Shown: piece after piece, positions 12,685 to 48,173 of the stretch
Layout: each line of letters begins with the position of its first letter
How positions within the stretch are numbered: position 1 is the stretch's first letter
Assembly: GCA_028718805.1 (NCBI GenBank)
Contig: JAQUKY010000001.1
Span: 80,384 to 144,383, forward strand
Length of the DNA stretch: 64,000 nucleotides
Direction of reading: 5' to 3'
Source of the DNA: Candidatus Nanoarchaeia archaeon
Lineage (GTDB): Archaea; Nanobdellota; Nanobdellia; Pacearchaeales; GW2011-AR1
Notes under the pieces: model-generated
Databases searched by the model: none
Told to the model about the DNA's origin: nothing
The model's input: only the letters and a program-made list of their open reading frames with translations
Translations under genes and position numbers: made by a program

Positions 12685-12774
12685 AGTAATTTATTAAACG
12701 ATTTTAATATGGATTCTGTTCATTAAGCTTATTATGATTGCTCCTTATTTTCTTAGTTTTATTTATTATTGGTT
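12685..12774 (-). repeat. Intergenic cassette copy D
   Basis: AGTAATTTATTAAACGATTTTAAT...GATTGCTCC...TAGTTTTATTTATTATTGG. Its right arm abuts the stop codon of the upstream gene. Confidence 0.7.
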
Positions 12775-19119: not shown

Positions 19120-19145
19120 TTTTTCATTTGGATATCCTCTTAACT

Positions 19146-19164
19146 TAGTGTATATTTTACACTA
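19146..19164 (-). promoter_or_regulatory. Predicted NrtR-type operator fused to the TATA box (nadK-nadD-nrtR promoter)
   Basis: Minus strand reads ATTTAAATAGTGTAAAATATACACTAAG. It has perfect 7-bp arms TAGTGTA/TACACTA with a 5-nt spacer, immediately 3' of TTTAAATA. Confidence 0.6.
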
Positions 19165-19219
19165 TTTAAATCTTTGTATACTGCAGTACATACTTTTAAT
19201 TTTTTATCTGCAATAATTT

Positions 19220-20239: not shown

Positions 20240-22764
20240 TTTCGTTGTTTTACAATCTCTGGCTTACTGCCTTTTTTTACTATCGTTAATCCTAAAAACT
20301 TTTTATCTTCTTCTGGGAAATCTTCTCTGAAATGACAGGCTCTGCTTTCCTCTCTTTTTAATGCACTTTCTAAAATTATACTTGCAACGTCTGCGATATT
20401 TCTAACTTCTAAAAAATCTTTTGCTAAGAAATAATCCCAATAAAACACATCGATTCCTTTTTGAAGTGCATTTAATTTTTGTATTGCAATCTCTAGTCTT
20501 TTCTTGTCTCTTGAAATTCCGCAAAGGTCAGTCATTACTCTTCTTATTGATTCCCAGTATTCTTCTATTAACTCCTGATGTTTTATCTTGGTTGCTTTTC
20601 CAACGTCCCATAATGGTATTTCTATATCTTTATTATCATGCTTCTTTGATAAAAAATGTTTTGCAGCAAGTCTCCCAAATAATATGCATTCTGGACCAGA
20701 ATTGCTTGCAAGACGTGTTGCCCCATGTAGTCCAGTGTATGATGTTTCCCCGAGTACATAACAGTTTTTTATGCTGGTTTCTGAATTTGAATCAACTAAC
20801 ACTCCTCCGTTTGAGTAATGAACTGCATAAACAATTGGGATAGGATCTTTTTTCATATCAAATCCCTTTTTAAGGCAGAAATCATAGGAATTCTTAAAAT
20901 CTTTTGTGAGCCTGCTTTCAGGGATTTTAGTGCAGTCTAACCATAAATGAGTTAAATTATTTTTTTTCATTTCCAGGTCTTCTGCCCGGCTTACAACATC
21001 ACGTGTTGCCTTTGAGCCAAGAGGATGGTACTTTAAAATGCAATCTTCTTTAGAATCTTTATAAGTCTTGATTATTGCTCCTGCTCCGCGCAGAGCTTCT
21101 GTTAATAAGAATCTTCTTTCGTTTTCATGTCTTGCCTTTAGGTCATAGAAAACACTTGGGTGAAATTGTATAAATTCCATATTTGCCAGAGGCAACCCTG
21201 CTCTGTAACACATTGCAAACCCGTCTCCTGTGGCAATATCTTTGTTGCTTGTGTATGAGAAAACTTTTCCAAGTCCTCCTGTGGCAACAAATGTTGCTTT
21301 GCAAGAAACAGTCTTGACATAATTCTTTTTTATATCATAGACATAAAATCCCAGGCATATATTTTTACCTTTTCTTCTTAATTTTTTGCTGGTTATTAAA
21401 TCAATAACAATGTGGTCTTCATGCAAAGTTATGTTTGGGTGAGTTCTTACTTTTTCACTGAGAATTTTCATTATAGTAATTCCTGTTGTGTCTTTTGCAT
21501 GAAATACTCTATTTCTGCTGTGCCCTCCTTCTATATGCAGATCATAAACATATCCTTTTTTTGATTTATCAAAATCAACTCCCTTTTGAACTAACCATTC
21601 TATAACATCTGGAAAAAAATGCTTTGAACAATATTCTACAATTTTCTTGTCATTTAGATATTTTCCTGCCATGAGCGTGTCTTTTACATGTTTTTCAAAT
21701 GAGTCTCCTTTTAACGGCTTGTTGTTAATTATTGGAACTGCAGTTAATCCCCCTGCTGCCAGATAACTATTGCAGTCTTTGAATAAGCTTTTCTTTACAA
21801 ATAAGTCTACTTTTTTACCTGCATCAGCTAATTCTAGTGCTACTGTGCATCCTGCAAATCCTCCCCCAATTACTCCACATTCAGTTCTTATCATATTTCT
21901 GTCCATGCCTAGGTCAACTGATCTTGCAGAGTGGGTTATTTCGCCTATTGAGATTCTTTCAACTCCTGTTTTAGCAATACTTCTAACATTCTCAAGGTTT
22001 ATGCCTCCTGATGCCTCTAGCAATGGCTTTTTATTTTTATTATTCTCATTTCTCATTAAAACTGCTTTTTTTAACTGTTGAGGGCTCATGTTATCCAAAA
22101 GGATTATATCTATCCCAGGAATTTTTAAAATATTTTTAAATTGATTTAAATTATCTACTTCTATTTCTATAAATTTTATTTTTTTCATTTTTTTTGCCTT
22201 GGTTACTATTTTATTTAATTGGTCGTATGTGTTTTTTCTAAGTTGTGCTAGATGATTGTCCTTGATAAGAACTGCATCATAAAGCCCTATTCTGTGATTG
22301 TTTCCCCCTCCACATTTAACAGCATATTTTTCCAATTGTCTCCAACCCGGAGTTGTTTTTCTTGTGTCGTATATTTTTGCGCTAGTCTCTTTTACTGCAT
22401 CTACATATTTACTAGTTAATGTTGCAATTCCGCTTAGTTTTTGCATAAAATTAAGAAGAACCCTTTCAGAATTTAGAATAGAATTTAAACGTCCTTCTAT
22501 TGTTGCTATCTTTTCTCCTTTATCAACTCTTTCTCCATCTTCTGCATATATCTTGACTTTTAGGCTTGGGTCATATTCTCTTAAAATTTCTGCAATGAGA
22601 TTTGTTCCGCATACGATTATTTCCTCCCGGGAAACAATGTTTGCACTTATAACTTCGTTATTTTCATGGAAGAGACTTGTTGTTACATCTCCGTTTCCGA
22701 AATCTTCTTTAACTGCCATCTTGATTAAATGAGGCAATCCCTTGAATTTTGTTTTGTTTTTCAT
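20236..22764 (-). CDS. nadC-nadB: Fusion: quinolinate phosphoribosyltransferase (NadC, N) plus L-aspartate oxidase (NadB, C)
   Basis: N about 290 aa: DTRKTTPGWRQLEKYAVKCGGGNNHRIGLYDAVLIKDNH. C about 550 aa: FAD fold GVIGGGFAGCTVALELA, FIQFHPS, GLHGATRLASNS. Confidence 0.9.
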   Translation of the reverse strand: MKNKTKFKGLPHLIKMAVKEDFGNGDVTTSLFHENNEVISANIVSREEIIVCGTNLIAEILREYDPSLKVKIYAEDGERVDKGEKIATIEGRLNSILNSERVLLNFMQKLSGIATLTSKYVDAVKETSAKIYDTRKTTPGWRQLEKYAVKCGGGNNHRIGLYDAVLIKDNHLAQLRKNTYDQLNKIVTKAKKMKKIKFIEIEVDNLNQFKNILKIPGIDIILLDNMSPQQLKKAVLMRNENNKNKKPLLEASGGINLENVRSIAKTGVERISIGEITHSARSVDLGMDRNMIRTECGVIGGGFAGCTVALELADAGKKVDLFVKKSLFKDCNSYLAAGGLTAVPIINNKPLKGDSFEKHVKDTLMAGKYLNDKKIVEYCSKHFFPDVIEWLVQKGVDFDKSKKGYVYDLHIEGGHSRNRVFHAKDTTGITIMKILSEKVRTHPNITLHEDHIVIDLITSKKLRRKGKNICLGFYVYDIKKNYVKTVSCKATFVATGGLGKVFSYTSNKDIATGDGFAMCYRAGLPLANMEFIQFHPSVFYDLKARHENERRFLLTEALRGAGAIIKTYKDSKEDCILKYHPLGSKATRDVVSRAEDLEMKKNNLTHLWLDCTKIPESRLTKDFKNSYDFCLKKGFDMKKDPIPIVYAVHYSNGGVLVDSNSETSIKNCYVLGETSYTGLHGATRLASNSGPECILFGRLAAKHFLSKKHDNKDIEIPLWDVGKATKIKHQELIEEYWESIRRVMTDLCGISRDKKRLEIAIQKLNALQKGIDVFYWDYFLAKDFLEVRNIADVASIILESALKREESRACHFREDFPEEDKKFLGLTIVKKGSKPEIVKQRK

Positions 22765-22766
22765 TT

Positions 22767-23675
22767 TTAACCTACACTTATCATCTTATTTAATGCTTTG
22801 CTGGCTTTAATCCTTATGTTTTCTGGAACATTTATCTCATACTGGTTTTTTTCAAGTGCTTCATAAACCTTTTTTAGAGTAGTTTTTTTCATGTTAGGGC
22901 ATGTTCCTCCAATTGAATAATACTTGTTCTCTGGGTTTTCTTTGATTAATCTATTAATCATATCTATTTCTGTTGCTAAAATTATTTGTTTGTTTTTATT
23001 TTCCTTTGCAAATTTAACCATTTTTTCTGTTGAGCAGATTTCATCTGCGTATTTTAAGACTTCTGCAGGACATTCAGGGTGCATTATAAGCTTTGCTTTT
23101 GGGTTTTGTTCTTTTGCAAGCTTTGCTTTTTCAGGAGAAATATTCTGATGGACATGACAGTAGCCCTGCCAGGGGATTATTTTCTTGTTTGTTTTTGTCT
23201 GAACATATGCACCAAGATTTTTATCAGGAATAAACAAAATTTCATTTTCCTTCATACTGTTTACAAGTTCAACTGCATTTCCAGAAGTACAACATGCATC
23301 TGATTCTGCTTTTATATTTGCATTTGTGTTTACATATGCAACGACTGCTGCTCCTGGATGCTGTTTTTTGAATTCTTTTAACTGTTTTACTGTTATCATT
23401 TCTGCCATAGGGCATCCTGCGTCAATTGCAGGGAGCAAGACTATTTTTTTTGGATTAAGTATTTTTGCAGTTTCTGCCATGAATTTGACTCCGCAGAAAA
23501 CTATTATGTCCTTGTCTGTTTCTGCAGCTTTTTTGCTTAATCCAAGAGAGTCTCCTATATAATCTGCAACTTCATATATTTCTGGTCTTTGATAGTTATG
23601 AACCAGTATGACTGCGTTTTTCTTTTTCTTTAATTCTTCAATTTTCCTGATTAGATTTTTTTCTTTATTTTCCAT
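22767..23675 (-). CDS. nadA: Quinolinate synthase
   Basis: About 300 aa with LVHNYQ, FCGVKFMAETAKIL and MHPECP contexts typical of NadA. Confidence 0.9.
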   Translation of the reverse strand: MENKEKNLIRKIEELKKKKNAVILVHNYQRPEIYEVADYIGDSLGLSKKAAETDKDIIVFCGVKFMAETAKILNPKKIVLLPAIDAGCPMAEMITVKQLKEFKKQHPGAAVVAYVNTNANIKAESDACCTSGNAVELVNSMKENEILFIPDKNLGAYVQTKTNKKIIPWQGYCHVHQNISPEKAKLAKEQNPKAKLIMHPECPAEVLKYADEICSTEKMVKFAKENKNKQIILATEIDMINRLIKENPENKYYSIGGTCPNMKKTTLKKVYEALEKNQYEINVPENIRIKASKALNKMISVG

Positions 23676-24111
23676 TTTTCTGCCTCCATATCTTATACTT
23701 TTCGATAATTTTTTTATGACTGAAAGCCATGTCAGGCAAGTTATCTAAGGGGAATTTTTTAACATCTGCTGCATCATCCCCTGGCTTTGTAACTCCGGTA
23801 TATTTTGTTGTAACATAGATTAAAGAGACTATATGCCCTCTTTCATTTTTGAGGGGATTATCTTTATGAGGATTTGATGTTTCGTGAAACAGCTCTAAAT
23901 CCTCTGTTTCTACATCTAAGCCTGTTTCTTCCTTAGCTTCTCTCCTGGCAGTTTGCCTCACGTTCTCTTCATCAACATTCAGAAACCCTCCCGGGAGTGC
24001 CCACAGACCTTTGTAAGGATTAAATTTTCTCTGAATCAAATATATCTCCCCATTATCTTCTATTATCAGGTCTGCAGTTACACTTGGTTTCTTAAAATTT
24101 TCTTGTTGCAT
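23665..24111 (-). CDS. Nudix hydrolase
   Basis: Nudix box GGFLNVDEENVRQTARREAKEETGL. Confidence 0.85.
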   Translation of the reverse strand: MQQENFKKPSVTADLIIEDNGEIYLIQRKFNPYKGLWALPGGFLNVDEENVRQTARREAKEETGLDVETEDLELFHETSNPHKDNPLKNERGHIVSLIYVTTKYTGVTKPGDDAADVKKFPLDNLPDMAFSHKKIIEKYKIWRQKNGK

Positions 24112-24112
24112 T

Positions 24113-24874
24113 TTAACTCTTAATAGCCTCCATAATTTTATTCTTAAATTTTATATCTACATCATAGGATATAAATCTATTTTCTGCTGTTTTATTAAAC
24201 TTTACGAAATCTTCTCCTAAAGCAGCAGATACTGCCAGAGCATCGTACATTGGAAATTCAGTTCTTCCTGTATAATCTGCCCATCTTTTTGTGGATTCAT
24301 ATAAAAAGTTTCCTAATTCAGTTTTTTTAAGAGCTTCTAGTTCATTTAGTGTGAAACAAACTTTTTTTGAGACTTCATTAGTTATCTGGAAAATTTTCCA
24401 GGGCTGAGAGAATACTTTTTGTGCAGCTTCGTTATCTGTTATCATATTGTGAGTGCCTTCAGAACCCATTATATAAACTTCTTTAACATTTTTTATACTT
24501 GGATTGTTTTCAAGCTGAAAAGCAATGTTTGTTAAAAGACCTATGCAAATAAGCTTTGTATCTTTATCATATTCTGGAAACTTATTATTTTCTAAATTTT
24601 CATTAAGCTCCTGCTGAGTTAAAGCTAATGGCTCTATTCCTGTCCAGTATTTTTTTATCATATCTTTGCTTCCAGATTTGCCCGCGGTTATTGGAATGTT
24701 AATTCCCAAAATCCTCTCGAGCTTTCTTGCTATCTTCGCCCTTATTATTGTGTCTCCCTGAGTAATTGTTATTGCCTTTATGTCTGCATTATTTTTTATA
24801 GCATAAGCCAGTGCAAACGCATCATCGGGGTCTGTTCCGATGTCTGTATCAATTACGAAATTTGTTTTTGTCAT
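24113..24874 (-). CDS. Nucleoside hydrolase (IU-NH family, short form)
   Basis: N-terminal aspartate cluster IDTDIGTDPDDAFALAYA. It is 253 aa, shorter than the roughly 310 aa of typical Rih enzymes. Confidence 0.7.
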   Translation of the reverse strand: MTKTNFVIDTDIGTDPDDAFALAYAIKNNADIKAITITQGDTIIRAKIARKLERILGINIPITAGKSGSKDMIKKYWTGIEPLALTQQELNENLENNKFPEYDKDTKLICIGLLTNIAFQLENNPSIKNVKEVYIMGSEGTHNMITDNEAAQKVFSQPWKIFQITNEVSKKVCFTLNELEALKKTELGNFLYESTKRWADYTGRTEFPMYDALAVSAALGEDFVKFNKTAENRFISYDVDIKFKNKIMEAIKS

Positions 24875-25902
24875 TTTTTATTTTCAAATAATTTATCTAC
24901 GAGTTTCTTTGCTCTATTGAATCTTTCATCATAATTCCCGTTTATCTCAATAAATGAAACTTTTCTATCCCTGAACATTTTTTTTAATTTATCATTGTTG
25001 ATTTTTCTTGTTTCCTGCTCTCCTGCAAATCTTAGGCCATCTTCAACCCATTTTACATCAGGTTCCAGATATAAGACCAGGTCATAATCCTGTAATTTTA
25101 CTATTTCCTCTATTAATTTAGATTTTTCTTTTGGGCAGTACATGTCCAAATAGTACTGGGTTGTTATTGCTTCGCTGTCAATAAACAAAACTTTATTGCT
25201 CTGCTCTGCCCTTTTCTGCTGCAATAAAAAATGTTCCATTGCTATATGATTAAACATTTCCTTGGTTAACTGATTGGAATATTTCTTACTGTAATCTCTC
25301 CCCACTTCTTCCACATAATTTGTGTTGTAAAACTTTGCCAGTTTCTTTGTAAGGATTGTTTTTCCGCAGCTTTCTGTTCCAACTACTGCAACTTTTTTTG
25401 TGAAATAAGATCTTACACAGTTTGGAAGCTTATCCCAGTTTTCATAAAGATTTTTTCTCATTTCAGTAGCTGAAATTCTTACAGTGTTTCTTTTGTCATC
25501 TATTACAATGTGTTTTGAATCTGGGTAAAATTTTTTAAAAAGTTTACTATACTCATGTTCTGAACTAAACACATAATCAATAGGTTTGCCAATTGCTTTC
25601 TTTATTAAATTTGCCCCAGTTTCCCAGTCGTAATTATTTTCCCACCGATCATCTTCGATATGTATCAGTTTTATGTTCTCAAGATTATTTAATGATTCTC
25701 CAATCCAGGATAATCTGACTTCTGCAGGAATATACTTTATTCCATCTCTCTCGCAGATTTCTCTGTCTCTGTTTTTAGATGAAGTAACAACTACATAAAG
25801 TTCATCTACTTGGTTTGAAGCAGCAATTATTGCATACACATGCCCTAAATGAAAGGGCAGGAATTTCCCTCCTATGAAACCAACTGTCTTTTTATTTTCC
25901 AT
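24871..25902 (-). CDS. nadR: NadR-like bifunctional NMN adenylyltransferase / ribosylnicotinamide kinase (no HTH)
   Basis: GGKFLPFHLGHVYAI (HxGH) in the N half; P-loop VVGTESCGKTILTKKLA in the C half. Confidence 0.85.
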   Translation of the reverse strand: MENKKTVGFIGGKFLPFHLGHVYAIIAASNQVDELYVVVTSSKNRDREICERDGIKYIPAEVRLSWIGESLNNLENIKLIHIEDDRWENNYDWETGANLIKKAIGKPIDYVFSSEHEYSKLFKKFYPDSKHIVIDDKRNTVRISATEMRKNLYENWDKLPNCVRSYFTKKVAVVGTESCGKTILTKKLAKFYNTNYVEEVGRDYSKKYSNQLTKEMFNHIAMEHFLLQQKRAEQSNKVLFIDSEAITTQYYLDMYCPKEKSKLIEEIVKLQDYDLVLYLEPDVKWVEDGLRFAGEQETRKINNDKLKKMFRDRKVSFIEINGNYDERFNRAKKLVDKLFENKK

Positions 25903-26476
25903 TTTGAGTTTTATATGATCTATACCATTTAATTAATCCGGATGTTGCCAGGACCAGGAACACAGCATAAAGTCCTGTTGTCATGTACAATCCTTTGTAA
26001 GAGTATATGAATAGCGCCATTACATCTACTGAAATCCATAAAACCCAATTTTCAAGGATTTTTCTTCCCATTAACCATTGAGCAGTAAGGCTCATTACAG
26101 TTGTTAATGAATCCCAATAAGGAAGTGAAGCCCCGGTATAATTAGCCATAACATATCCAAGCAGCATTGTTACAACTATAATCTCAAGTGACCAGAATAT
26201 TATTCCCATTATTTTTAATCTTTTAACAGGAACACTATCTTTCTTTTTTTTATTACCATAAACCCAATAATACCATCCATAAATCTGCATGAAAATGTAT
26301 ATAAAATTTTCAAGAGTATCTGAATATAGCTTAACATTTAAGAATATGATTACGTAGAGAATTGTCATTGCAATTCCTGTTGGCCAGCACCATATATTCT
26401 GCTTTGTTGTGAAATAAACACTTAATACCCCAAGTATGACTGCTGCAAGCTCCAAAATAGTCATTAATTCTAGCAT
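25892..26476 (-). CDS. pnuC: Nicotinamide riboside transporter PnuC
   Basis: Multi-TM protein with the signature KQNIWCWPTGI and Trp-rich helices. Confidence 0.85.
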   Translation of the reverse strand: MLELMTILELAAVILGVLSVYFTTKQNIWCWPTGIAMTILYVIIFLNVKLYSDTLENFIYIFMQIYGWYYWVYGNKKKKDSVPVKRLKIMGIIFWSLEIIVVTMLLGYVMANYTGASLPYWDSLTTVMSLTAQWLMGRKILENWVLWISVDVMALFIYSYKGLYMTTGLYAVFLVLATSGLIKWYRSYKTQNGK

Positions 26477-27333
26477 CTTTTATTCCTCCAAGATTTATAT
26501 CTCTCCATTACCAAGTTATGGTCAAAGGCAAGTCTTGGGGTTTCTTCAAGAGTAGCCCAGTATAGTTCAGAAGCATCATCTCCTGCTTTTGGGATTCCTT
26601 TATAATTTTTTACAATAAAAATGTGGTCAATTACATGAGTTCTTGGATCTCTATCCGGAGATGAGTTAACCATCAGTAATTCTAAATCTTCTGGGTTAGT
26701 TTTGAGGTTTGTTTCTTCATCTAATTCTCTTACTGCAGTCTTTTCCAATGATTCTTTCATGTAATCAAGGAATCCTCCCGGTAGAGCTAACATTCCTTTG
26801 TAGGGTTCATGCTTCCTTTTAACATAGCAGATTTTCCCGTTTCTTTCAACAATCATTGATGCTGTTGAAGCTGGATTTTTAAATTCCATTTTACTCCATT
26901 GTTTTACTTGTTTAGCTAAATCGTTTATAGAATAGACAATTTTTATCTCAGGTCTGATTAATGCTGTTTGTATTTCAACATCTATTTTTCTTTTGTATTC
27001 TGGATGAACCCCTATGAAAACGGGTTTATCAGAGTTACTTTGTTTTCCAAGTTCATAGAGAGTTATTGGGCAAAGAGTTTCTTTTGGGAACCAGAATGAA
27101 ACTGCATCTGCCTTCCTGAGATGATTGTATTCCCATATTATCTGTTCTTTGTCTATGCCAGGCTTATCTGGAAATATTTTTCTTCTTGGATTTAATATCA
27201 CAATTTTTTCATCTTCTAGTAACTTTACTAATTCTGACTGCCAGTTTTGGCATCCTGTTATGCCTCCGGCTATGAACAAGGATTTTTCATCTTGTTTTCT
27301 TTCATATTCTTCAGGCGCTTCTGTGTATTTCAT
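26470..27333 (-). CDS. Fusion: nucleoside 2-deoxyribosyltransferase-like domain (N) plus Nudix hydrolase (C)
   Basis: N half: LFIAGGITGCQNW...ADAVSFWF...ITLYELG (NDT/SLOG-like, Glu in YELG). C half: Nudix box LPGGFLDYMKESLEKTAVRELDEETNL. Confidence 0.65.
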   Translation of the reverse strand: MKYTEAPEEYERKQDEKSLFIAGGITGCQNWQSELVKLLEDEKIVILNPRRKIFPDKPGIDKEQIIWEYNHLRKADAVSFWFPKETLCPITLYELGKQSNSDKPVFIGVHPEYKRKIDVEIQTALIRPEIKIVYSINDLAKQVKQWSKMEFKNPASTASMIVERNGKICYVKRKHEPYKGMLALPGGFLDYMKESLEKTAVRELDEETNLKTNPEDLELLMVNSSPDRDPRTHVIDHIFIVKNYKGIPKAGDDASELYWATLEETPRLAFDHNLVMERYKSWRNKRC

Positions 27334-27334
27334 T

Positions 27335-28252
27335 TTATCTGTACTCCAAATTTATTTTAGCTATTGGGGGATGTAAAATTTCAGATTTCTTCTGAGCAAT
27401 TTTATTTCTCCTTAAAATGTCATATACAATTTTTTCAGTTGTGTTGAATTTTCTATTTCCATAAATTTTTTCATACTTTTGCATATCTTTTTCAGTATAT
27501 TCTTTAACTTGAGTATTTTCTATAAGGTTTTCAAGAGAGAATCCTTGTGTAAGACCCTCTGTTACTAATTCTACGGTTTCATACTCATAACCCAAGTCTT
27601 TGAAATCTGTTTGATTTGGTTCTATTCCTGCTGTTGGTGTTTTTTTTGCTATTTCGGGAAATCCGAGATATTCTGCCATCTGTTTCACTAATCTTTTTGA
27701 GAGATTTCCAATAGGAGAAAGATGAACAGCACCATCTCCGAATAAAGTATAATATCCTACACCAAAGTCTTCATCTTTATTTCCGGTTCCTAGCACTAAT
27801 TTTTGTTCTATGGCTGCTTTTGTTGATAAAATATTAGCCCTTATTCTTGCTATCAAGTTACCTTTGTCATATTCTTTGCCTACCTCAAAAATTCTTGGGT
27901 CAACAGTATAAAATCCTTCAATCGCTTTGTTTATGTCTATGACTTCATAGTCTATTGCAAGTTTTTTTGCAACATATGTCCCATCTATTGTATCTTTTTG
28001 CTCATTTAGTTTTGTTGGAAGCATATACCCAATTAATCCTAGTTTTCTGTCTTTCCTTCTATTGTTTTCATTATAATTATCAAATGCTTTTTTTGCTAAT
28101 GCTGCTGTTACTGTTGAATCTACTCCTCCGGATAATCCTATTACTCCCCCGGTATAGCCTATGCTGGTTATTTCATCTAAAATGAAATCTCCGATTTCAT
28201 CTGCTGCCTTTTCTGGATTCATGTATGGAAGTTTTATTTTTTCGTTTTTCAT
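27335..28252 (-). CDS. nadE: NH3-dependent NAD+ synthetase
   Basis: PP-loop GLSGGVDSTV, GNLIARIRANIL, GTGNKDEDFGVGYYTLFGDG. The start is set at MKNEKI, whose ATG overlaps the upstream TGA (ATGA). Confidence 0.85.
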   Translation of the reverse strand: MKNEKIKLPYMNPEKAADEIGDFILDEITSIGYTGGVIGLSGGVDSTVTAALAKKAFDNYNENNRRKDRKLGLIGYMLPTKLNEQKDTIDGTYVAKKLAIDYEVIDINKAIEGFYTVDPRIFEVGKEYDKGNLIARIRANILSTKAAIEQKLVLGTGNKDEDFGVGYYTLFGDGAVHLSPIGNLSKRLVKQMAEYLGFPEIAKKTPTAGIEPNQTDFKDLGYEYETVELVTEGLTQGFSLENLIENTQVKEYTEKDMQKYEKIYGNRKFNTTEKIVYDILRRNKIAQKKSEILHPPIAKINLEYR

Positions 28253-29184
28253 ATTTTTTCCTCCTCTAAAAAATAAGGTGTCAGGCAAAGCCTGCAGAAC
28301 TTATCCCTCATGAATTGTTCTATGTGTTTATCTGTGTTTGCAAGCAAAATAACATCGCTTGCTTTCAGATTTAGATTATGTTTTTTATTCAATTCTTTGA
28401 TTATTTTATCCTGGAGCGGCTTATATTTATTGTAAAGCTGTTGTGGTCTTATTTCATCCAAAATTCTGTCTGCTACAACCAGAGAGAATATATTCTTAAA
28501 CCATATATTCGCTTCAAGTGTTTCTATTGGCTCTCTGCTAAAAGTGAAACCTATCCTATAATAATACAAACCAAAAGGTTTGCTCATTGAAGTTACCACT
28601 GCGATTATGTTCTGATTGCTTAAATCGAATTTGTTATCTCTTGTTAAACCAGCATAACTAGTATCATAAACAACTTTGTGATATTTGCAGATCTCATTTA
28701 TAAATTCATTTTTGATTATGTTTCCATTTCTTGAAGAAGGGTTTGAGATGAAGAAGATTCCTGGATTTAATTTTGAAAACTCTTCATTTTCGTTAACTTC
28801 AATTATCTTTATTCCCATTTCCTTGGCATACTCTTTGTATCCTTCATATTCTCCCTTTAAAGTATAAATGGGTGCTTCAGGATTTTTTGTTTTTAGCTTA
28901 ACAAGCAAATGAAAAATACCTTCACTTGCTCCTGCTGTAAAATATCTATACTTAAAATCTTTTAAAGAGGGTAATTGTTTTTCATTATATCTTATAAACT
29001 TTCCAATTACTGGAAAGTGAAAGTCATCTAAGCCAGGAGTTATTGAACTAAGGAAGACTTTATGAGGATAGTTTTTAACAACTTCGTCTATAACTTTTCT
29101 TATTTCTGGGAAATAATAGCAATAGACTGTTCTTGTAGCTTTTAGCTTTTCTATTTCAATATTTTTTTGTTTTTGAATTTCCAT
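28249..29184 (-). CDS. PLP-dependent aminotransferase-fold protein (class I/II-like), function unknown
   Basis: TSMSKPFGL (Schiff-base Lys context), DTSYAGL and FISNPSSRNGN (degenerate NPxNPTG) in the expected order. Short (311 aa). Confidence 0.5.
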   Translation of the reverse strand: MEIQKQKNIEIEKLKATRTVYCYYFPEIRKVIDEVVKNYPHKVFLSSITPGLDDFHFPVIGKFIRYNEKQLPSLKDFKYRYFTAGASEGIFHLLVKLKTKNPEAPIYTLKGEYEGYKEYAKEMGIKIIEVNENEEFSKLNPGIFFISNPSSRNGNIIKNEFINEICKYHKVVYDTSYAGLTRDNKFDLSNQNIIAVVTSMSKPFGLYYYRIGFTFSREPIETLEANIWFKNIFSLVVADRILDEIRPQQLYNKYKPLQDKIIKELNKKHNLNLKASDVILLANTDKHIEQFMRDKFCRLCLTPYFLEEEKI

Positions 29185-29185
29185 T

Positions 29186-30046
29186 TTAAATTAAAATTGC
29201 CCCCTTATACTGCCAGTCATATCTTAGATGACCATCTGGAAAAAATATTATCTGCCTTAGGTTATCTGAATCTGGCTCTATTGTTAATGCATCTGTAATG
29301 CATATATTCTGCCCGTGAACATCGTAGACTTTTGCTCCATCATGAAAAGTCATAAGTTTGTTTCCATTTCTAATTACAAAGTTTCTTATTTTTGTCATTT
29401 CTGATTCTTTGATGAGATTTTCTGCAGTCCATGCAGCAATTTCATTATCTTCAGAATGTTTTGGCATTGCGAGTTTTCTTATGCTTAGATGCTCTAATTT
29501 CCATTCTTTAGCTTTTTCAATAAGATTCTTTACTTCTTCTGGATTGTCAATAAATCCTTTTAGCATAGTGCAGCTTATTCTTACTGAAAATCCAATAATA
29601 TGCAGTTTTTTAATTAAATTTTCAAGTTCAGGATATTCCTCTGAGAATATTTCCTTGTTTCTTTCTTGTTTATAATGAACTGCAGACAGAGCTATCATTG
29701 TTAATCCTAGAGTATACCATCTTTTCAGATGTTTGTTATAGCTTTCTTGGGTAAGTAAAATCCCATTTGTCTGTAATTCAATTAGTGGAAAATTGAATCT
29801 TTTTAAATTTTCCAGGAATTTTGTTATTTGCTTTGGATAAAGAGTTGGCTCTCCTTTTCCTGTTATCAAAACAGTCGTAATTCCTTTTATTTCTGCTAAC
29901 CTGCATGCTTTTTCAAAATTCCTCCAGTTAACTCTTGGTTCTTCTAAGCTAATCCCTTGTTTAGGAGTCATTTTTGATATGCAATAAGGGCAGTGCGCAT
30001 TGCATGCTGTTGTTCCTGCGACTATGCTAAATGTTTGTATTTTCAT
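29186..30046 (-). CDS. Radical SAM enzyme, function unknown
   Basis: CNAHCPYC (CxxxCxxC) at residues about 15-22, GKGEPTLYP (GGE-like) and ELQTNGILL. Confidence 0.8.
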   Translation of the reverse strand: MKIQTFSIVAGTTACNAHCPYCISKMTPKQGISLEEPRVNWRNFEKACRLAEIKGITTVLITGKGEPTLYPKQITKFLENLKRFNFPLIELQTNGILLTQESYNKHLKRWYTLGLTMIALSAVHYKQERNKEIFSEEYPELENLIKKLHIIGFSVRISCTMLKGFIDNPEEVKNLIEKAKEWKLEHLSIRKLAMPKHSEDNEIAAWTAENLIKESEMTKIRNFVIRNGNKLMTFHDGAKVYDVHGQNICITDALTIEPDSDNLRQIIFFPDGHLRYDWQYKGAILI

Positions 30047-30513
30047 ATTTTGCCTCCTGGTTTATAACCGCTTATCATCAAGAAACCGTTTCCGGCTAAT
30101 TTTAGTGTTTCCTGCTCTTTTAATCCCAGAGTTTTTCCGCTCATTATCTCCCAAAGTCCAAGAGCCTTTCCTAAAGCCATTGTTCTTAATGCTTCTTCTT
30201 GTTCTACTTCTAAATTAGGGGCTAGTTCAATATAACTTGGCCCCCCAGCAAGCCTGTCTTTTTGGGGGTAATCTTCTAATAGAGTTTCTAATTCTTTTTT
30301 TCTTGCCTTTGCTTTTTCTTTGTCAACTAAGACATCTACAAAGATCATATCTATTTTTTCATATTTTTCATTATTCGGAGCTTCTGAAGTATGAGGATAG
30401 CCAAATATCTCCACAACATGTAGATTCCCAGTATTTCTTTCCTCAATTACCCCTCCTTTTCTGTAAACTCTCGTAGTTTCCTGCAGTATGTCATAAAGTT
30501 TCTCAGTGTTCAT
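30043..30513 (-). CDS. Hypothetical protein (156 aa)
   Basis: Overlaps both neighbours by 4 and 11 nt; no motif recognised. Confidence 0.5.
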   Translation of the reverse strand: MNTEKLYDILQETTRVYRKGGVIEERNTGNLHVVEIFGYPHTSEAPNNEKYEKIDMIFVDVLVDKEKAKARKKELETLLEDYPQKDRLAGGPSYIELAPNLEVEQEEALRTMALGKALGLWEIMSGKTLGLKEQETLKLAGNGFLMISGYKPGGKI

Positions 30514-30781
30514 TTTTTTTACCTCCGTAGCTAAAAATAAGCCTGTTACATCGGTCTGTTTGGGATCCTGTGAAGTGATAAACTTTCCAGTGAGGGCTGT
30601 ATATCTGAATTAGTTTGTCAATAGCTTCTCTTGAAGTATTGTCTAGAAGATCAAATGCAACTTCTCGTGTTCCATTAAAAGTTGCTTCAAGAAACTTATC
30701 AATTTCTATTTCTAGGCTTTTGACAGTTTCATTGTCATTTCTTATTTTTCTTTCAATTAATGGTTCTGGTATGATTACCAT
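30503..30781 (-). CDS. Hypothetical small protein (92 aa), paralog of 31133..31390
   Basis: Shares MVI(I/T)P start, LExxIDxxLE, IYxxxWxV and QxxxxxxLxF with the 85-aa ORF. Confidence 0.45.
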   Translation of the reverse strand: MVIIPEPLIERKIRNDNETVKSLEIEIDKFLEATFNGTREVAFDLLDNTSREAIDKLIQIYSPHWKVYHFTGSQTDRCNRLIFSYGGKKNEH

Positions 30782-31131
30782 CTTCCGGCTCCTTCCCCAA
30801 AATCTGGGATTTTTGTTATACTATCTTTAGCTCGAGTTGTGATTTGTTCAAGCCCGCATCTAGTGCAGGTTCTTTTCCATCTTGGTTCTGTTTTTGCTGA
30901 AACATAAGTTGGTCCTCTCCAGTCAACACCCATTGTTCCTGGTTTATCTCCAGGAATAGTATATGCTGATGTGTAAATTGGGTCATAAATTGTCTTGCTA
31001 TATTCATGCTGACATCTTCTTTCGTAATCTCTAAGTTCGTTTCTAGCTCTGTCAGATTTTTCATTAGCTTTATTAACTTCTTCATTGGTTCTTTTTACTA
31101 TTTCACGTAATTCTCTTGCTCTGTTTTCCAT
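30775..31131 (-). CDS. Hypothetical protein (118 aa; N-terminal coiled coil, Cys/His cluster)
   Basis: RRCQHE ... CTRCG. Translationally coupled to both neighbours. Confidence 0.45.
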   Translation of the reverse strand: MENRARELREIVKRTNEEVNKANEKSDRARNELRDYERRCQHEYSKTIYDPIYTSAYTIPGDKPGTMGVDWRGPTYVSAKTEPRWKRTCTRCGLEQITTRAKDSITKIPDFGEGAGRW

Positions 31132-31132
31132 T

Positions 31133-31390
31133 TTATTCTCTGCCTCCGGTTTTCATTTCTTTAAAACTTAGATAGTTTCCTTCTCTTTGGTCTGATTCAT
31201 AACTGACCTCCCAGCCAGCTTTTTCATATATATGAGTTATTTCTTGAACTACTTTTTCTCCAGGATATTCATTTATATCGAAAGTATTTTCCCCTTCCAA
31301 TAATGCCTGGTCAATTCTCTTCTCCAGACCTTTAAGCAGGGCTTTATCTGCTTTTGTCAGAGCTTTTGCTTCTTGAGGTGTGATTACCAT
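31133..31390 (-). CDS. Hypothetical small protein (85 aa), paralog of 30503..30781
   Basis: The start is trimmed to MVITPQ (ATG 1 nt after the pncA TAA). The longer track ORF would overlap pncA by 83 nt. Confidence 0.45.
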   Translation of the reverse strand: MVITPQEAKALTKADKALLKGLEKRIDQALLEGENTFDINEYPGEKVVQEITHIYEKAGWEVSYESDQREGNYLSFKEMKTGGRE

Positions 31391-31391
31391 T

Positions 31392-32129
31392 TTACAATTT
31401 TCCCTCCAAAACCTGTTTAGTTGTAATGAGTTTGGCACCAGCTTTTGACATTTCTTCAAGTGCTTTATTTCCAAATTCAGGATCTACTTTTCCTTCAAAA
31501 TTTATATTAACAGCTTCTATTGCATCAGTTACCACATAAATCTCCAATGGTTTTTGATATTTGTCTCTAATTTCCGCCATTTTCAGAACTGCTGCTTTAT
31601 CACAATAGTCTGTTGCAAAACCATTTACAATGACTCTTTGTAGGCCTTTGTCAAGCAATTTTTTAAATGCTGGCTCAAAATTAGGATTTGTCCCAACATT
31701 ATAGTTCTGCTTTTCAAAAATTAAGTGCATCTTATTTTTTTCTGCAGCTTCTGTATACTTCTCTAGTTCATTGTTAGTATAAATCTTAATTCCCAGTTCA
31801 GGCCCATCCTTTGCTCTTATATAAATGTCTTTTTGAGGTTCTAGTTCTTTTAGCCTTAACTGACCCCAGGTTCCATTCATGCAATGATCATCAAATACCC
31901 CTCCCTGGTTTCTTATTAATTCTGCATCTTCGTAAAAATGCCTGTCTACTGACCCGAGAAACAGATAGTTGTTATCAATTGCATTTTTATGTATTGCAAA
32001 TATATTCGGGAGTCTTTCTTCTGCACCATAAGGCAATGCTGTTTTTGGCTTGTTAGCTCTTACAAACAATGCTCCTTCTCTTACACTAAAGTCGTACTGA
32101 ACATCTGTTTCATAAATTGCAGTTTTCAT
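31392..32129 (-). CDS. pncA: Isochorismatase-family nicotinamidase
   Basis: N-terminal Asp (ETDVQYDF), metal-site context SVDRHF...DDHC, and nucleophile Cys in GFATDYCDKAAV. Confidence 0.7.
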   Translation of the reverse strand: MKTAIYETDVQYDFSVREGALFVRANKPKTALPYGAEERLPNIFAIHKNAIDNNYLFLGSVDRHFYEDAELIRNQGGVFDDHCMNGTWGQLRLKELEPQKDIYIRAKDGPELGIKIYTNNELEKYTEAAEKNKMHLIFEKQNYNVGTNPNFEPAFKKLLDKGLQRVIVNGFATDYCDKAAVLKMAEIRDKYQKPLEIYVVTDAIEAVNINFEGKVDPEFGNKALEEMSKAGAKLITTKQVLEGKL

Positions 32130-32130
32130 T

Positions 32131-33324
32131 TTATTTTATACCTCCTAATCTTAGTTTTAGTTTTGGATTTGGATTGTATTGTCTTCCGACTTTTGCAATC
32201 GGAACAAAATGTTCTGGATCTTCTCCAACAGCAACTATGTCCATTTTTGATGCCCTTGATTCGAAAATCTGGCCTACACCAAGACCTTCAAATAGTTTTG
32301 TTCCTAACAATTTCTCTGCTCTTACAAATGCCTCGACCTTTTTTGGTTCTGCAAAACCACTTGATAACCAGATTTGCAAATTTTTGTAATTATTTTCATC
32401 AAGAGCTTTTCTCATGGCATAAGTCCCTGTTACAGTCACTCCTCTGTCAAACCAGTATTTCTCATCTTCTTTAGGAATGATTACTTTTTTTCCAACTAAT
32501 CTCTCAAGTTTCTTTTCATCTTTAAATTCTAAAGCTCCTTCTCCGGCATTTTCACCACATGTATCTATTCTTGGGCCATGAAGCCTGTTTTTCAGAGCTT
32601 TGGCTGTATCTAAAGTGTCTGTAATTTCTTTATTTCTGTAATCACATAAAATTATTCTTGGAACTTCTGGTTCAATGTGTTTATCAAAAGCAATCATTGT
32701 TTCTGAAACAGCTCTTTCGTAGCCATATTTTGCAGCCATTATATTTTCTAGAACGTGAGGAGTTGTTCCCATTCCTTTTTTCCCTGCTGTTGCTGCACCA
32801 ATATCTGTTGAAGCGCTTGTTGCACCTGCTTCAAAAGCTGCTTTTGTAATTGCTGCATCTTCATCATATCTCCAGTGCCTTGCACCAAAATAAGAAATAA
32901 ACCTTCCTTCTGCAGCTTTCACAACGTACCTCATATTTTTTCTTACTAAGTCTAAATCTATTCCGTGCTTATCGTTCGCTTTTGTAGTTTCTGCTGCTAA
33001 AACTCCTAGATACATTGTTTCTAAATCCACAATGTCTTGGATTGGAGCCTCAATAAGCATAAGTGTTTCTTTCGGCTGATAAGATTCTCCTTCATTTAGT
33101 GCATAAACTCTTCCTTTATGAGCAACTAAATTGCTGTATTTATCAAGAATTGCAAGAGCTTCATTTATTCCATAAACTTTTCCAGGCCCTTTTCTTATAA
33201 ATATCTGTGCTCTTACCCAAGGATTGATACCTTCTGCTTCAAGTATTTTCTTTGCTCTTAGAAAATATTTGTCAATATAAGAAGCATATTCATCAGGCAG
33301 ATTAAATTTTTTTGTTTGTGCCAT
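32131..33324 (-). CDS. pncB: Nicotinate phosphoribosyltransferase (archaeal/type II PRTase-like)
   Basis: GTTPHVL, ILCDYR, PRIDTCGE, IWLSSGF and LGVGQIF align in order with conserved blocks of archaeal NAPRTases as I recall them. Confidence 0.75.
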   Translation of the reverse strand: MAQTKKFNLPDEYASYIDKYFLRAKKILEAEGINPWVRAQIFIRKGPGKVYGINEALAILDKYSNLVAHKGRVYALNEGESYQPKETLMLIEAPIQDIVDLETMYLGVLAAETTKANDKHGIDLDLVRKNMRYVVKAAEGRFISYFGARHWRYDEDAAITKAAFEAGATSASTDIGAATAGKKGMGTTPHVLENIMAAKYGYERAVSETMIAFDKHIEPEVPRIILCDYRNKEITDTLDTAKALKNRLHGPRIDTCGENAGEGALEFKDEKKLERLVGKKVIIPKEDEKYWFDRGVTVTGTYAMRKALDENNYKNLQIWLSSGFAEPKKVEAFVRAEKLLGTKLFEGLGVGQIFESRASKMDIVAVGEDPEHFVPIAKVGRQYNPNPKLKLRLGGIK

Positions 33325-33332
33325 TTTTATTT

Positions 33333-33746
33333 TTATTTTTTACCTCCTTCATTTACAAACATCATCTGCATTTTTCCTACTATATCCGGCGTCTCAACTT
33401 TATTTAGAAAACATCCTGTCTGATAAAATTCAATTATTTCTCCTTGAGGGTCATAAACATCGCCTTGTAAAAGCCTTCTTGCAGTTACATGCCATCCGTC
33501 AGGGTAGATATCATAAGGTCCGTGTCCTGTACCTCCTCCGCCATAATAAGTTTTTTCAACAACATACCTTGCTTTTTCTCTTTCTTGGTCTATATGCCCC
33601 CTAAATTTCATAGGGCCTGCTACATTAAAGCGTCCTTTTTGAAATAGATTAGGATTTTCTATAATTCCTTCTATTCCGACTTGTGGGATTTTTATTACAT
33701 CCCCTATCTGGACTAGTTTTTGTTTTGTTAGTGTATTATTTAACAT
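33333..33746 (-). CDS. Hypothetical protein (137 aa), first gene of the NAD operon
   Basis: Gly-rich loop YYGGGGTGHGPYDIYPDGWH; no family recognised. Confidence 0.5.
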   Translation of the reverse strand: MLNNTLTKQKLVQIGDVIKIPQVGIEGIIENPNLFQKGRFNVAGPMKFRGHIDQEREKARYVVEKTYYGGGGTGHGPYDIYPDGWHVTARRLLQGDVYDPQGEIIEFYQTGCFLNKVETPDIVGKMQMMFVNEGGKK

Positions 33747-33750
33747 AAGT

Positions 33751-33769
33751 TAGTGTAGTAAATACACTA
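33751..33769 (-). promoter_or_regulatory. Predicted NrtR-type operator fused to the TATA box (main NAD operon promoter)
   Basis: Minus strand reads GTTTAAATAGTGTATTTACTACACTAACTTATG. It has the same arms and 5-nt spacing as the site at 19146. The palindrome lies between the TATA box and the ATG, which implies a leaderless mRNA. Confidence 0.6.
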
Positions 33770-33871
33770 TTTAAACCTATGTGTACTAGAGAATACATAT
33801 TGTTAGAGTTAAACTAAGATTGAAAATTACCGAGAATATGCCTTAAAATTACATACACTAAGGAGGATAAA

Positions 33872-37121: not shown

Positions 37122-37205
37122 TTTATGTTTATTTGTTTTATTTTGTTACTATTATTTGGTAATAGCTAATATTTAAATAATGCCTCCCACCTTGTGGTAA
37201 GTAAG

Positions 37206-37943
37206 ATGTATGAGAAATTGCTTGAAGAATGCGGGCTGACACAAAATGAAACCCTTGTATACCTCGCATTGCTTAAAATGGGCAAGGCTAAGAGTGGGGA
37301 GATAATCAGGGAAGCAAAAATCTCCGGGGGAAAAATCTATGAAACACTTTACAAACTTGTTGACAAAGGTCTTGTGAAAGAGGTATCTGAGAACAGGGTA
37401 AAGCGATTTATTGCAAATGATCCAAAAACATTGATATCTTATATCAGGGAGAAAGGAAAGAGCCTCAAGGAAAAAGAAAATGAGCTAAATAAAGCGGTTC
37501 CGTTGCTATTCAGCCTTAAGAAACAAGAGTCTGAATCAGATAGCGTTTCTCTTGTTAAAGGAACTAAGGGGATTTCTCCTGTTGTCTATTCAGTTTTGGA
37601 GCAATCAAAAGAGATTAGGATTATGGGTGTCAGGTCTTCTAAAAAAGAAGAATATAATAATTTTTGGAGGGGCTGGCACAGAAAGAGAGTTGAATTAAAA
37701 AGAGAGGCTAAAATGTTATTTTCAGACAGGAATACAGATTACTGGAGATTTTTCAGGAAGCTTAAATACACCAAGGTAAAAGAGCTTCTTCATCTAAGCC
37801 CATCTGCAATTATGACTATAGATAATAATGCCTTTTTATTTTCTTATGAAGAAGAATTTACCTGCATCCATATAACCTCAGATTCCATATCTTCTTCTTT
37901 ATCAAACTTTTTTGATGATTTATGGAGAATAGCCAAGAAATAA
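37206..37943 (+). CDS. TrmB-family transcriptional regulator
   Basis: N-terminal wHTH LTQNETLVYLALLKMGKAKSGEIIREAKISGGKIYETLYKLVDKGLV. ATATTTAAATA lies about 30 nt upstream of ATG 37206. Confidence 0.75.
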   Translation: MYEKLLEECGLTQNETLVYLALLKMGKAKSGEIIREAKISGGKIYETLYKLVDKGLVKEVSENRVKRFIANDPKTLISYIREKGKSLKEKENELNKAVPLLFSLKKQESESDSVSLVKGTKGISPVVYSVLEQSKEIRIMGVRSSKKEEYNNFWRGWHRKRVELKREAKMLFSDRNTDYWRFFRKLKYTKVKELLHLSPSAIMTIDNNAFLFSYEEEFTCIHITSDSISSSLSNFFDDLWRIAKK

Positions 37944-42386: not shown

Positions 42387-42467
42387 GGTAATTTATTAAA
42401 CGATTTTAAGTTTTGTTTGAGTGGCTTAATTGTTTATGAGTTTTTAGTTTAGTTATTTATTACTGAT
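42387..42467 (-). repeat. Intergenic cassette copy F (in a convergent intergenic region)
   Basis: GGTAATTTATTAAACGATTTTAAG...TTAGTTTAGTTATTTATTACTGATT, located between two 3' ends. Confidence 0.7.
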
Positions 42468-46769: not shown

Positions 46770-48173
46770 CTATGTTACATCTCCTAAAACTAAAGCAGAA
46801 TTATATCCCCCAAAACCCATAGAGATTACAAGGGAATTTCTTATATTCCTTTCTACTGCTTTATTGGGGGTGTAGTTTAAATCACATTCAGGGTCTGGAT
46901 TGTCTAAATTAATTGTTGGGGGAACAAGATTATTTTGTACTGCAAGAGCACTTATTATCGCTTCTATTCCTCCTACTGCTCCTATTGAATGTCCTGTCAT
47001 TGATTTTGTTGAGCTTATATTTAACTTGTTAGTATGTTCTTCAAACACCTCTTTAATAACTTTAGTTTCAACAAGATCACAGGTTTTGGTTGCAGTTCCG
47101 TGGGTATTGATATAATCAATTTCATTTATGTTTAAACCAGACATATTGATTGTTTTTTTTATCGCTTTTTTTAAGTACTCTCCTTCTGGATGAAGCATAA
47201 CCATTTGTGGGTTTGCATCACTGGATTGACTATACCCTTTTATTTTAGCATAAATTTTAGCATTTCTTTTTAATGCACATTCTTTTTCTTCTAAAACAAT
47301 TATCCCTGCTCCTTCTGAAATAGCAAATCCATCTCTGTCAATGCAGTATGGTTTGGGTTTTGTTCTCGAGATTACTCCTAAATTAGATAGGCAGGATATT
47401 GCCTGCAGAGTAATTGGTGCTTCAGAACCTCCTGCAATTGCAGTATTAGAACGACCTTCCTTAATTGTGTAATAGGCTTGTCCTATTGCGTCAAGTCCTG
47501 AAGAACAAGCGGTATTTATACATATCGAAGACCCATGAAAGTTAAAAAAACTAGAAATTTTTGCAGGAATTGCATAACTTTTAAAATCTATGGTATTTGG
47601 TGGAGTAAATTGGTAAAGATTTCCAAATCTTTTATTAAGAAAGGTTATAAATTCTTCGAGCTTGTCTTCTTGCAATAGGCATTTGTACTTTACAAATTCT
47701 CTTTTTGTTTTAAAAAAATGAAATGGTCTAACCAATTTATTAAATTCTTCAAAGGTTTTTTTCATAACTGTCTGGATAACTACTTTTACAACCTGCTCAT
47801 TTGATTGAATCGGTTCTTCTGCATTTCCCATAAAAACGTCAATATCATTGTTTTCTTTGTTATATTCCAAAACTGCATTTTCTAATGCTAATCTTGTTCC
47901 AAGAACAGCAAATTGTATGGATTTGTCATCTGTTTTGACTTTCCCATAATTTTTTTTATTAAATTTCCCTTGATTTACATCTTGTAAAAAATAATTATCT
48001 AGATTAAAATCTTTGATTTCACTTCCCTTAATTTCCCCATAACCTCTATCTCTTACTATTGGAAGAGTCTCAAAAAAAGATTTTCCATTAACTATGTTCT
48101 CCCAAAAATCTCTTATTCCAATTCCATTGGGTGTTACTATTCCTAGCCCTGTTATTACAACTTCTCGGTTCAT
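46770..48173 (-). CDS. Beta-ketoacyl synthase, FabF/KAS-II type (Cys-His-His)
   Basis: VVITGLGIVTPNG, active-site NTACSSGLDAIG, THGTATKTCD, GHSIGAVGG, GFGGYNSALVL. About 60 extra residues precede the active-site Cys. Confidence 0.85.
   Translation of the reverse strand: MNREVVITGLGIVTPNGIGIRDFWENIVNGKSFFETLPIVRDRGYGEIKGSEIKDFNLDNYFLQDVNQGKFNKKNYGKVKTDDKSIQFAVLGTRLALENAVLEYNKENNDIDVFMGNAEEPIQSNEQVVKVVIQTVMKKTFEEFNKLVRPFHFFKTKREFVKYKCLLQEDKLEEFITFLNKRFGNLYQFTPPNTIDFKSYAIPAKISSFFNFHGSSICINTACSSGLDAIGQAYYTIKEGRSNTAIAGGSEAPITLQAISCLSNLGVISRTKPKPYCIDRDGFAISEGAGIIVLEEKECALKRNAKIYAKIKGYSQSSDANPQMVMLHPEGEYLKKAIKKTINMSGLNINEIDYINTHGTATKTCDLVETKVIKEVFEEHTNKLNISSTKSMTGHSIGAVGGIEAIISALAVQNNLVPPTINLDNPDPECDLNYTPNKAVERNIRNSLVISMGFGGYNSALVLGDVT

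Follow-up and report, generated by a model that had tools for sequence, protein, structure and literature searches.

What reads a perfect 19-bp palindrome that runs directly out of the TATA-like hexamer of an archaeal NAD operon and ends just short of the first start codon? The locus raising this question lies in a stretch of 64,000 nucleotides, here called the window, which is archaeal (it encodes CDC48, the large subunit of RFC, a family-B DNA polymerase, TrmB, and HerA) and has a GC content of 33%. The likely answer is that the palindrome is the operator of NrtR, a Nudix and winged-helix protein encoded in the same gene cluster, which would act from a TATA-proximal position as an ADP-ribose-released repressor of two NAD units comprising 18 and 3 genes. 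An earlier note on this DNA had proposed an operator for an NrtR-like protein, and the proposal gains support from Pfam assignments, the GT-N7-AC core of the palindrome, the contacts seen in a crystal structure of a family member, and the enrichment of the box beside nrtR genes in both domains.

The perfect palindrome, TAGTGTA-N5-TACACTA, and its end 4 nt before the ATG of the main promoter (33746-33744), both claimed in that note, were borne out when the sequence was re-read and the window was searched for exact matches; the minus strand at 33744-33776 reads GTTTAAATAGTGTATTTACTACACTAACTTATG, identical to the quotation given there. Exactly two copies occur in the window (Table 1), and they stand at the heads of the cluster's only two recognizable transcription units, both on the minus strand and both composed of NAD genes. 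A TTTAAA hexamer adjoins each copy (33770-33775 at the main and 19165-19170 at the second promoter). The 7-mer half-site by itself is not enriched in the window (10 observed versus 13.3 ± 4.2 expected), and six of its ten copies fall within the two NAD promoter regions. In box 1, GT at 33755-56 and AC at 33764-65 are spaced by exactly N7, which is the NrtR core: published NrtR boxes are 21-bp palindromes built around GT-N7-AC (Rodionov et al. 2008, PMC2330246).

Table 1. Features of the NAD gene cluster and its two promoters (positions in the window; sequences of boxes 2 and 3 as on the minus strand)
Feature	Position	Strand	Sequence	Remarks
Box 1, perfect NrtR box	33751-33769		TAGTGTA-N5-TACACTA	19 bp; about -23 to -5 relative to the predicted TSS at 33746
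Box 2, weak tandem box	33729-33747		TATGTTAAATAATACACTA	3 mismatches; distal half perfect
Box 3, weak upstream box	33798-33816		TAGTTTAACTCTAACAATA	3 mismatches; about -70 to -52
Isolated perfect half-site	33854-33860		TACACTA, AG flank	within ATACACTAAG (33853-33862); near the 3′ end of the upstream pfkB
Predicted TATA box, main promoter	33768-33775	minus	TTTAAATA	-29 to -22; last two bases are the first two of box 1
ORF137	33333-33746	minus		first gene of the main unit; ATG (33746-33744) is also the predicted leaderless TSS
Main NAD unit	19220-33746	minus		18 genes; no intergenic gap > 8 nt
Perfect NrtR box, second promoter	19146-19164		TAGTGTATATTTTACACTA	exact palindrome match
Predicted TATA box, second promoter	19163-19170	minus	TTTAAATA	nadK-nadD-nrtR unit; predicted from spacing
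Second unit	17089-19119	minus		NAD kinase, NadD-like adenylyltransferase, NrtR; assigned by Pfam
nrtR	17089-17769	minus		226 aa; Nudix + NrtR winged-helix; PF21906 NrtR_WHD E=2.3e-25, PF00293 E=1.6e-23

The main unit opens with ORF137, a NAPRT-like protein, PncA, and four small unknown proteins (genes 1-7), continues with a radical SAM protein, an aminotransferase, NadE, a Nuc_deoxyribosyltransferase-Nudix fusion, and PnuC (genes 8-12), and closes with a NadR-like NMNAT/kinase, a nucleoside hydrolase, a Nudix protein, NadA, a NadC-NadB fusion, and an ADP-ribosylglycohydrolase (genes 13-18). The only real gap of the cluster, 19120-19219, contains the second palindrome. In the second unit, nrtR is the third and last gene and overlaps nadD. 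The 21 genes between 17089 and 33746 cover de novo NAD synthesis, Preiss-Handler salvage, uptake and salvage of nicotinamide riboside, NAD kinase, and ADP-ribose recycling. Such a cluster is of note since the usual picture of DPANN archaea is one of cells without cofactor biosynthesis that depend on a host for cofactors; some of them carry a large NAD cluster, apparently under tight regulation. Two other ways of reading the control of these genes were rejected: no NAD riboswitch was found here, and an operator of the NiaR/NadR type was discarded, the NadR-like protein (24871-25902) matching only adenylyltransferase and AAA_28 kinase families in Pfam, with no DNA-binding (HTH) domain among these matches.

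The earlier note had taken TTTAAA for a TATA box and the main transcript for a leaderless mRNA. The first claim is supported by a promoter survey of the window, restricted to genes with real upstream gaps, in which about ten other genes lack a Shine-Dalgarno motif and have a hexamer of the form TTTAWA or TTATAW whose first base lies 27-29 nt ahead of the ATG; in five of them the hexamer lies at exactly -29, matching ORF137. Because about ten genes share this arrangement, transcripts without a leader, driven by a TATA box with its centre near -26, appear to be the rule in this genome. ORF137 (137 aa) has no Pfam match, yet it represents a real, rare protein family with 15 database relatives and a near-invariant motif GGGTGHGPxDIYPDGWHVTARRL (GGGTGHGP.D.YPDG.H being invariant); a block LxQxGD, about 5-10 residues into the protein, is conserved as well. 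No alternative start codon was found before this block, and the ATG at 33746 is therefore supported as the start. With a sole possible start for ORF137 and a TATA centre at about -26, the claim of a leaderless main mRNA is supported too, and the usual TATA-to-ATG spacing of the genome agrees with such a start at 33746. ORF137 itself may be a new protein related to NAD, either an enzyme or one that binds a ligand or partner. The hexamer at -29 and a box that occupies the interval between the predicted TATA box and the predicted TSS fit the geometry of an archaeal TATA-proximal repressor operator, in agreement with the repressor-type position proposed before.

Two further full-length boxes, both weak and overlooked in the earlier note, are found at the main promoter. 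Box 2 is placed 22 bp downstream of box 1, over the predicted TSS and the ATG of ORF137; in one of the compared loci (L112, see below) the orthologous sequence is non-coding, with ATA instead of ATG, and 28 nt separate box 1 from the start of the first gene. Box 3 is placed 47 bp upstream of box 1, and its ortholog is a 2-mismatch box at L112 7193 with an identical 47-bp offset. The weaker half-sites that had been claimed at 33781-33860 did not stand, neither being a full box: GTGTAC/ATACAT (33781-33800) was rejected as an NrtR box for its wrong spacing (N8 here, N6 at the other promoter) and for showing 5 mismatches in any register, and the half-site within ATACACTAAG is isolated, having no partner half at N5 spacing, and is of uncertain significance. 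The segment 33781-33800 is nevertheless conserved between both window promoters. A TCTnnAGTA element is likewise present in both (minus strand, TCTCTAGTA at 33783-33791 and ACTGCAGTA at 19178-19186), fixed 8-16 nt upstream of the TATA hexamer; it recurs upstream of the boxes in L113 and L118, is not an NrtR box, lies beyond the BRE, and may be a second factor's site. An exact search of the fetched loci for the upstream element and the box combined gave no match.

The layout of the main promoter was said to recur at 19146, which is true of its core. Both promoters share TTTAAATA/TTTAAA, followed by the box and then by A(C/G)TTA; the start codon, however, is not 4 nt away, since nadK begins 26 nt after the box, and this promoter is predicted to be leadered. 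Because the TATA-to-TSS spacing is taken to equal that of the main promoter, the TSS of the second unit is predicted near 19141, with a leader of about 22 nt containing GAGG. ATGAAAAAATGA (19116-19127, minus strand) is a mini-ORF of three codons; its stop codon overlaps the ATG of nadK, and GAGG stands 7 nt upstream of its first ATG. It may reflect translational coupling or a mis-assigned nadK start.

The candidate reader of these boxes, NrtR, has its closest relatives in MAGs of Nanoarchaeota, Woesearchaeota, and Pacearchaeota. Its Nudix signature, GX5EX7REUXEEXGU, is intact (G46-x5-E52-x7-R60-E61-L62-x-E64-E65-x-G67-V68). Full-length alignments to PDB entries place AraR of Bacteroides thetaiotaomicron (BtAraR; 5bs6, E=5.6e-46) closest, followed by NrtR of Shewanella oneidensis (SoNrtR; 3gz5, E=1.7e-36). 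In the BtAraR-DNA crystal the operator strand GCAAAAGTGTTACTTTTACACCCATGC has the form AGTGT-N7-ACAC, and GTGT is defined by four residues of the recognition helix (Lys179, Arg180, Asn181, and Lys184) and by one of the wing, Arg205 (PMC4666351). The window protein has the same recognition helix, DKRNFRKK, and the same wing arginine: K179/R180/N181/K184/R205 of BtAraR align with K180/R181/N182/K185/R206, all of which are invariant in 32 archaeal homologues, as is the motif DKRNFxKK (n=32), and BtAraR K204 is replaced by Tyr. On the ligand side, R32 and R87 align with R41 and R98, ADP-ribose ligands of SoNrtR, and the R98 position is Gly in the arabinose-sensing AraR. Since the Nudix catalytic signature is intact, the window NrtR may also hydrolyse ADP-ribose, its own proposed effector, which would complicate a simple switch.

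Does the box accompany NrtR elsewhere? Eighty loci were taken from species-representative genomes, chosen by NrtR protein alignment alone, and archaeal loci were added through exact-protein look-up; a scan of metagenome contigs with the NrtR protein yielded mostly distant or partial matches and one useful archaeal locus (L081). The resulting 87 NrtR loci (1.32 Mb) contain 12 exact, 29 one-mismatch, and 35 two-mismatch boxes, versus 0, 0.1, and 4.4 per replicate when the loci were shuffled in 100-nt blocks. At up to one mismatch this amounts to 41 boxes versus about 0.1 per shuffle replicate, an enrichment near NrtR genes of at least several-hundred-fold. Boxes are found in DPANN archaea and in at least ten bacterial phyla, often directly upstream of nrtR, the box-bearing bacteria including Acidobacteriota, Chloroflexota, Planctomycetota, Verrucomicrobiota, Myxococcota, Cyanobacteria, and Gammaproteobacteria. 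At up to two mismatches, 32 of the 87 loci have no box, some of these being short contigs. Among archaeal loci, 13 of 17 have a box at this threshold and the other four have one at three mismatches; in L001, L002, and L081 such 3-mismatch boxes end at the nrtR start codon. In DPANN genomes the boxes precede either nrtR itself or the first gene of NAD operons that terminate in nrtR, such as the NAPRT-like/PncA/radical SAM/NrtR operons of L112, L116, and L118 and the nucleoside hydrolase/NadE/.../NrtR operon of L113. The bacterial consensus extends the palindrome to tTAGTGTA-N5-TACACTAa. The least variable positions of the box form the GTGT core, a result biased by a pre-filter that demanded one intact GTGT. 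Secondary boxes (up to three mismatches) are spaced 22-26 bp from the primary one, at 22 bp in archaea (six cases, among them L003, L112, L115, L116, and L118) and at 23-26 bp in bacteria.

A separate, weaker class of boxes, TTTATATAcct|TATTGT-N7-ACACTA, occurs in many DPANN relatives with its end overlapping or touching the nrtR ATG (L001 6409, L002 9983, L081 1680, L071 9970, L004 9982, L005 9962) and would imply a dedicated, leaderless, autoregulated nrtR promoter. The window has no box of this class because nrtR overlaps nadD there.

The comparison extends to the promoters in which the boxes are embedded. Archaeal boxes with up to one mismatch have a TATA-like hexamer within 12 nt upstream in 15 of 16 cases (background 6%), abutting exactly in 8 of the 16. 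Bacterial boxes have TTGA within 9 nt in 13 of 27 cases (background 9.5%), nine of them at the -6 offset also seen in archaea; in these promoters the 17-nt spacer is taken up by the box, the terminal TA of which opens a TAnnnT -10 element, as in L066 (TTGACA|TAGTGTTGCATGTACAC|TATACT). Judged by these promoter sequences, a single operator fits either type of promoter through a change of the abutting hexamer. In the NrtR tree, a rough neighbour-joining tree without support values, 17 of 18 archaeal sequences form one pure clade nested among bacterial ones, a topology that suggests a single bacterial-to-DPANN transfer carrying the operator specificity along. It appears somewhat favoured that NrtR and its 19-bp operator crossed from Bacteria to DPANN with specificity kept, apparently once (in the Woese-/Pacearchaeota clade), and that only the abutting hexamer was swapped: TTGACA as the -35 element in bacteria, where the box spans the distance from -35 to -10 and contributes its terminal TA as the first bases of the -10 element, would have given way to TTTAAA as the TATA box in archaea, where it spans the distance from TATA to TSS. 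If so, NrtR would be a natural repressor module independent of promoter architecture, and supposedly metabolically minimal DPANN cells would hold ADP-ribose-sensing control over a complete 21-gene NAD supercluster.

Compared with the bacterial NrtR proteins of Shewanella oneidensis (SO1979) and Synechocystis (Slr1690; PDB 3GZ5/3GZ6), the window system shares the Nudix and winged-helix architecture, a palindromic GT-N7-AC operator, tandem boxes, the location of nrtR within a regulated operon, and the ADP-ribose-contacting arginines of SoNrtR. The NAD genes common to bacterial NrtR regulons and the window cluster are pncA/pncB-like, nadE, nadD, nadA/B/C, and pnuC/nadR. Several differences exist: the host is a DPANN archaeon, the promoter is of the TATA/TFB type, and the box abuts TATA rather than occupying the -35/-10 interval; the main mRNA probably lacks a leader and has its start codon covered by a weak box; the Nudix catalytic signature is intact rather than degenerate as in SoNrtR; and the regulon forms one 21-gene supercluster. 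AraR (BT0354; PDB 5BS6, 5DD4), the closest solved structure by sequence, shares with the window protein the AGTGT-N7-ACAC operator geometry, D-K-R-N-F-R-K plus the wing arginine, and tandem sites. It senses L-arabinose and controls sugar genes, whereas the window NrtR sits among NAD genes, and its nucleotide pocket is filled (G89, F36, L67), whereas the window NrtR keeps R87 and the catalytic Nudix box. By every computable criterion, the window pair is a member of the known NrtR regulator/operator family; what is new is the archaeal-promoter setting.

This setting has precedents in other regulator families. Archaeal repressors with operators between the TATA box and the TSS include MDR1 (Archaeoglobus), LrpA and Phr (Pyrococcus), and TrmB-family proteins, which belong to the DtxR, Lrp/AsnC, wHTH heat-shock, and TrmB families, respectively. 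Their operators lie immediately downstream of TATA or overlap it, and recruitment of RNA polymerase is expected to be blocked after or alongside the binding of TBP/TFB. Operator placement is thus alike, the protein families being different, and none of these repressors is known to sense ADP-ribose or to control NAD metabolism.

On these grounds we infer that NrtR binds the boxes and represses from them, and the following mechanism is proposed. A dimer of NrtR would use its pair of winged-helix domains to read GTGT-N7-ACAC. The box of either NAD promoter shares its first two bases with the end of the predicted TATA box and extends to about -5, so that NrtR, once bound, should block the assembly of TFB and RNA polymerase, and possibly that of TBP. 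At the main promoter, boxes 1, 2, and 3 would probably be occupied cooperatively; both tandem sites and double shifts are on record for Shewanella NrtR and BtAraR. If bacterial NrtR is a guide, ADP-ribose, a breakdown product of NAD consumption, would bind the Nudix domain and release the protein; ADP-ribose suppressed DNA binding of the Shewanella and Synechocystis proteins in vitro. Release would de-repress the 18 + 3 genes for NAD synthesis, salvage, uptake, and ADP-ribose recycling, nrtR included, and autoregulation is predicted because nrtR is the third gene of the box-headed second unit.

The effector is deduced from few residues together with the gene context. ADP-ribose is favoured by the alignment of R32 and R87 and by the gene context, which includes an ADP-ribosylglycohydrolase and Nudix enzymes; the closest solved homologue, on the other hand, is an arabinose sensor. 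An NrtR that binds the boxes and is something other than a simple ADP-ribose-released repressor, being an activator or dual regulator through box 3 or responding to NAD or another ligand, is the alternative that survives best, although it is improbable. Box 3 lies upstream of BRE/TATA, a position that can be activating in archaea, the effectors of the NrtR family differ (ADP-ribose, NAD, arabinose; PMC4666351), and a response to NAD or another ligand has been reported for NdnR of C. glutamicum; the intact Nudix signature would moreover imply enzymatic turnover of the ligand by NrtR. Yet a perfect box at -23 to -5 of both promoters, abutting TATA in half of the 16 archaeal sites, is in an occlusive position, and every characterized NrtR is a repressor.

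That the palindrome is the site of another protein, for instance the TrmB-family regulator encoded at 37194-37943 or an unrecognized factor, with NrtR merely co-located, is considerably less probable. A TrmB gene does lie near the NAD cluster in both the window and L112. Nevertheless, loci picked by NrtR homology alone carry the same box in DPANN and in at least ten bacterial phyla, where TrmB is absent, and box geometry and contact residues match the crystal structure of an NrtR-family protein.

Still harder to sustain is the idea that the inverted repeat acts as RNA, whether by folding into a 5′-leader hairpin or by terminating the upstream pfkB. The repeat could fold into a stem of 7 bp around a loop of 5 nt, and for nadK a leader is predicted to follow the box. 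The predicted TSS, however, lies downstream of the box, no T-run follows the inverted repeat, and across sites 158 single-sided changes stand against 11 compensatory ones. What is conserved is the GTGT sequence and not the pairing; variation that is largely single-sided fits recognition by a protein rather than an RNA hairpin. With no Rfam match at the palindrome and no compensatory pattern, the RNA-element reading was rejected. Finally, although the genome has 33% GC and the half-site alone is not enriched in the window, the notion that an AT-rich palindrome turned up twice by chance, or that the copies are a functionless remnant of a duplication, is effectively refuted and scarcely credible, since 100 dinucleotide-preserving shuffles put the expectation for the 25-nt pattern (palindrome plus TTTAAA) at 0.00, boxes are enriched in NrtR loci far beyond the shuffled loci, and the two copies differ in their central 5 nt while their arms are identical.

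The operator reading of the palindrome, although its mechanism is not new in kind, bears on a regulator so far studied in bacteria only. A search of the searchable full-text literature returned no paper pairing NrtR with DPANN and none describing an archaeal NrtR operator; among the papers listed for NrtR and archaea, none was found that had an archaeal NrtR as its subject, archaea being mentioned in passing or in reference lists in those checked, and the pairing of NrtR with 'TATA box' retrieved a docking benchmark only. The locus would represent a clean case of a bacterial-type ligand-sensing repressor wired into an archaeal TATA/TFB promoter, and it supplies the operator, the protein, and two promoters, one predicted to be leaderless and the other leadered. 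TAGTGTA-N5-TACACTA is conserved in both domains to a degree sufficient for regulon prediction in thousands of uncultured genomes.

A number of further observations concern the remaining content of the cluster and the window. The radical-SAM gene (29186-30046, minus strand) is a constant member of DPANN NAD/NrtR clusters, usually located directly upstream of nrtR, and is 49-77% identical across loci (L112 9098-9958, L113 9067-9939, L115 9093-9926, L118 9027-9899, L004 ~9096-9962); canonical NAD synthesis includes no radical-SAM step. Unusual fusions join NadC to NadB (842 aa; 20236-22764, minus strand), a nucleoside 2-deoxyribosyltransferase-like domain to Nudix (26470-27333, minus strand), and MTAP to adenine phosphoribosyltransferase (15544-16818, plus strand). 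A FabF-like beta-ketoacyl synthase is encoded in this archaeon at 46770-48173 (minus strand). The 16-mer TTAAAATCGTTTAATA is present in five exact copies, at 1806-1821(-), 3324-3339(-), 4970-4985(+), 12692-12707(-), and 42394-42409(-), and in 14 copies at up to three mismatches versus 4.6 expected, with variants at 40418, 52597, and 14974. Copies of it precede the ATGs of CDC48 (5010), of the gene at 12225-12668, and, in variant form, of PolB (40397) by about 40 nt; the 16-mer is probably either a strong BRE+TATA promoter class or the signal of a separate regulon.
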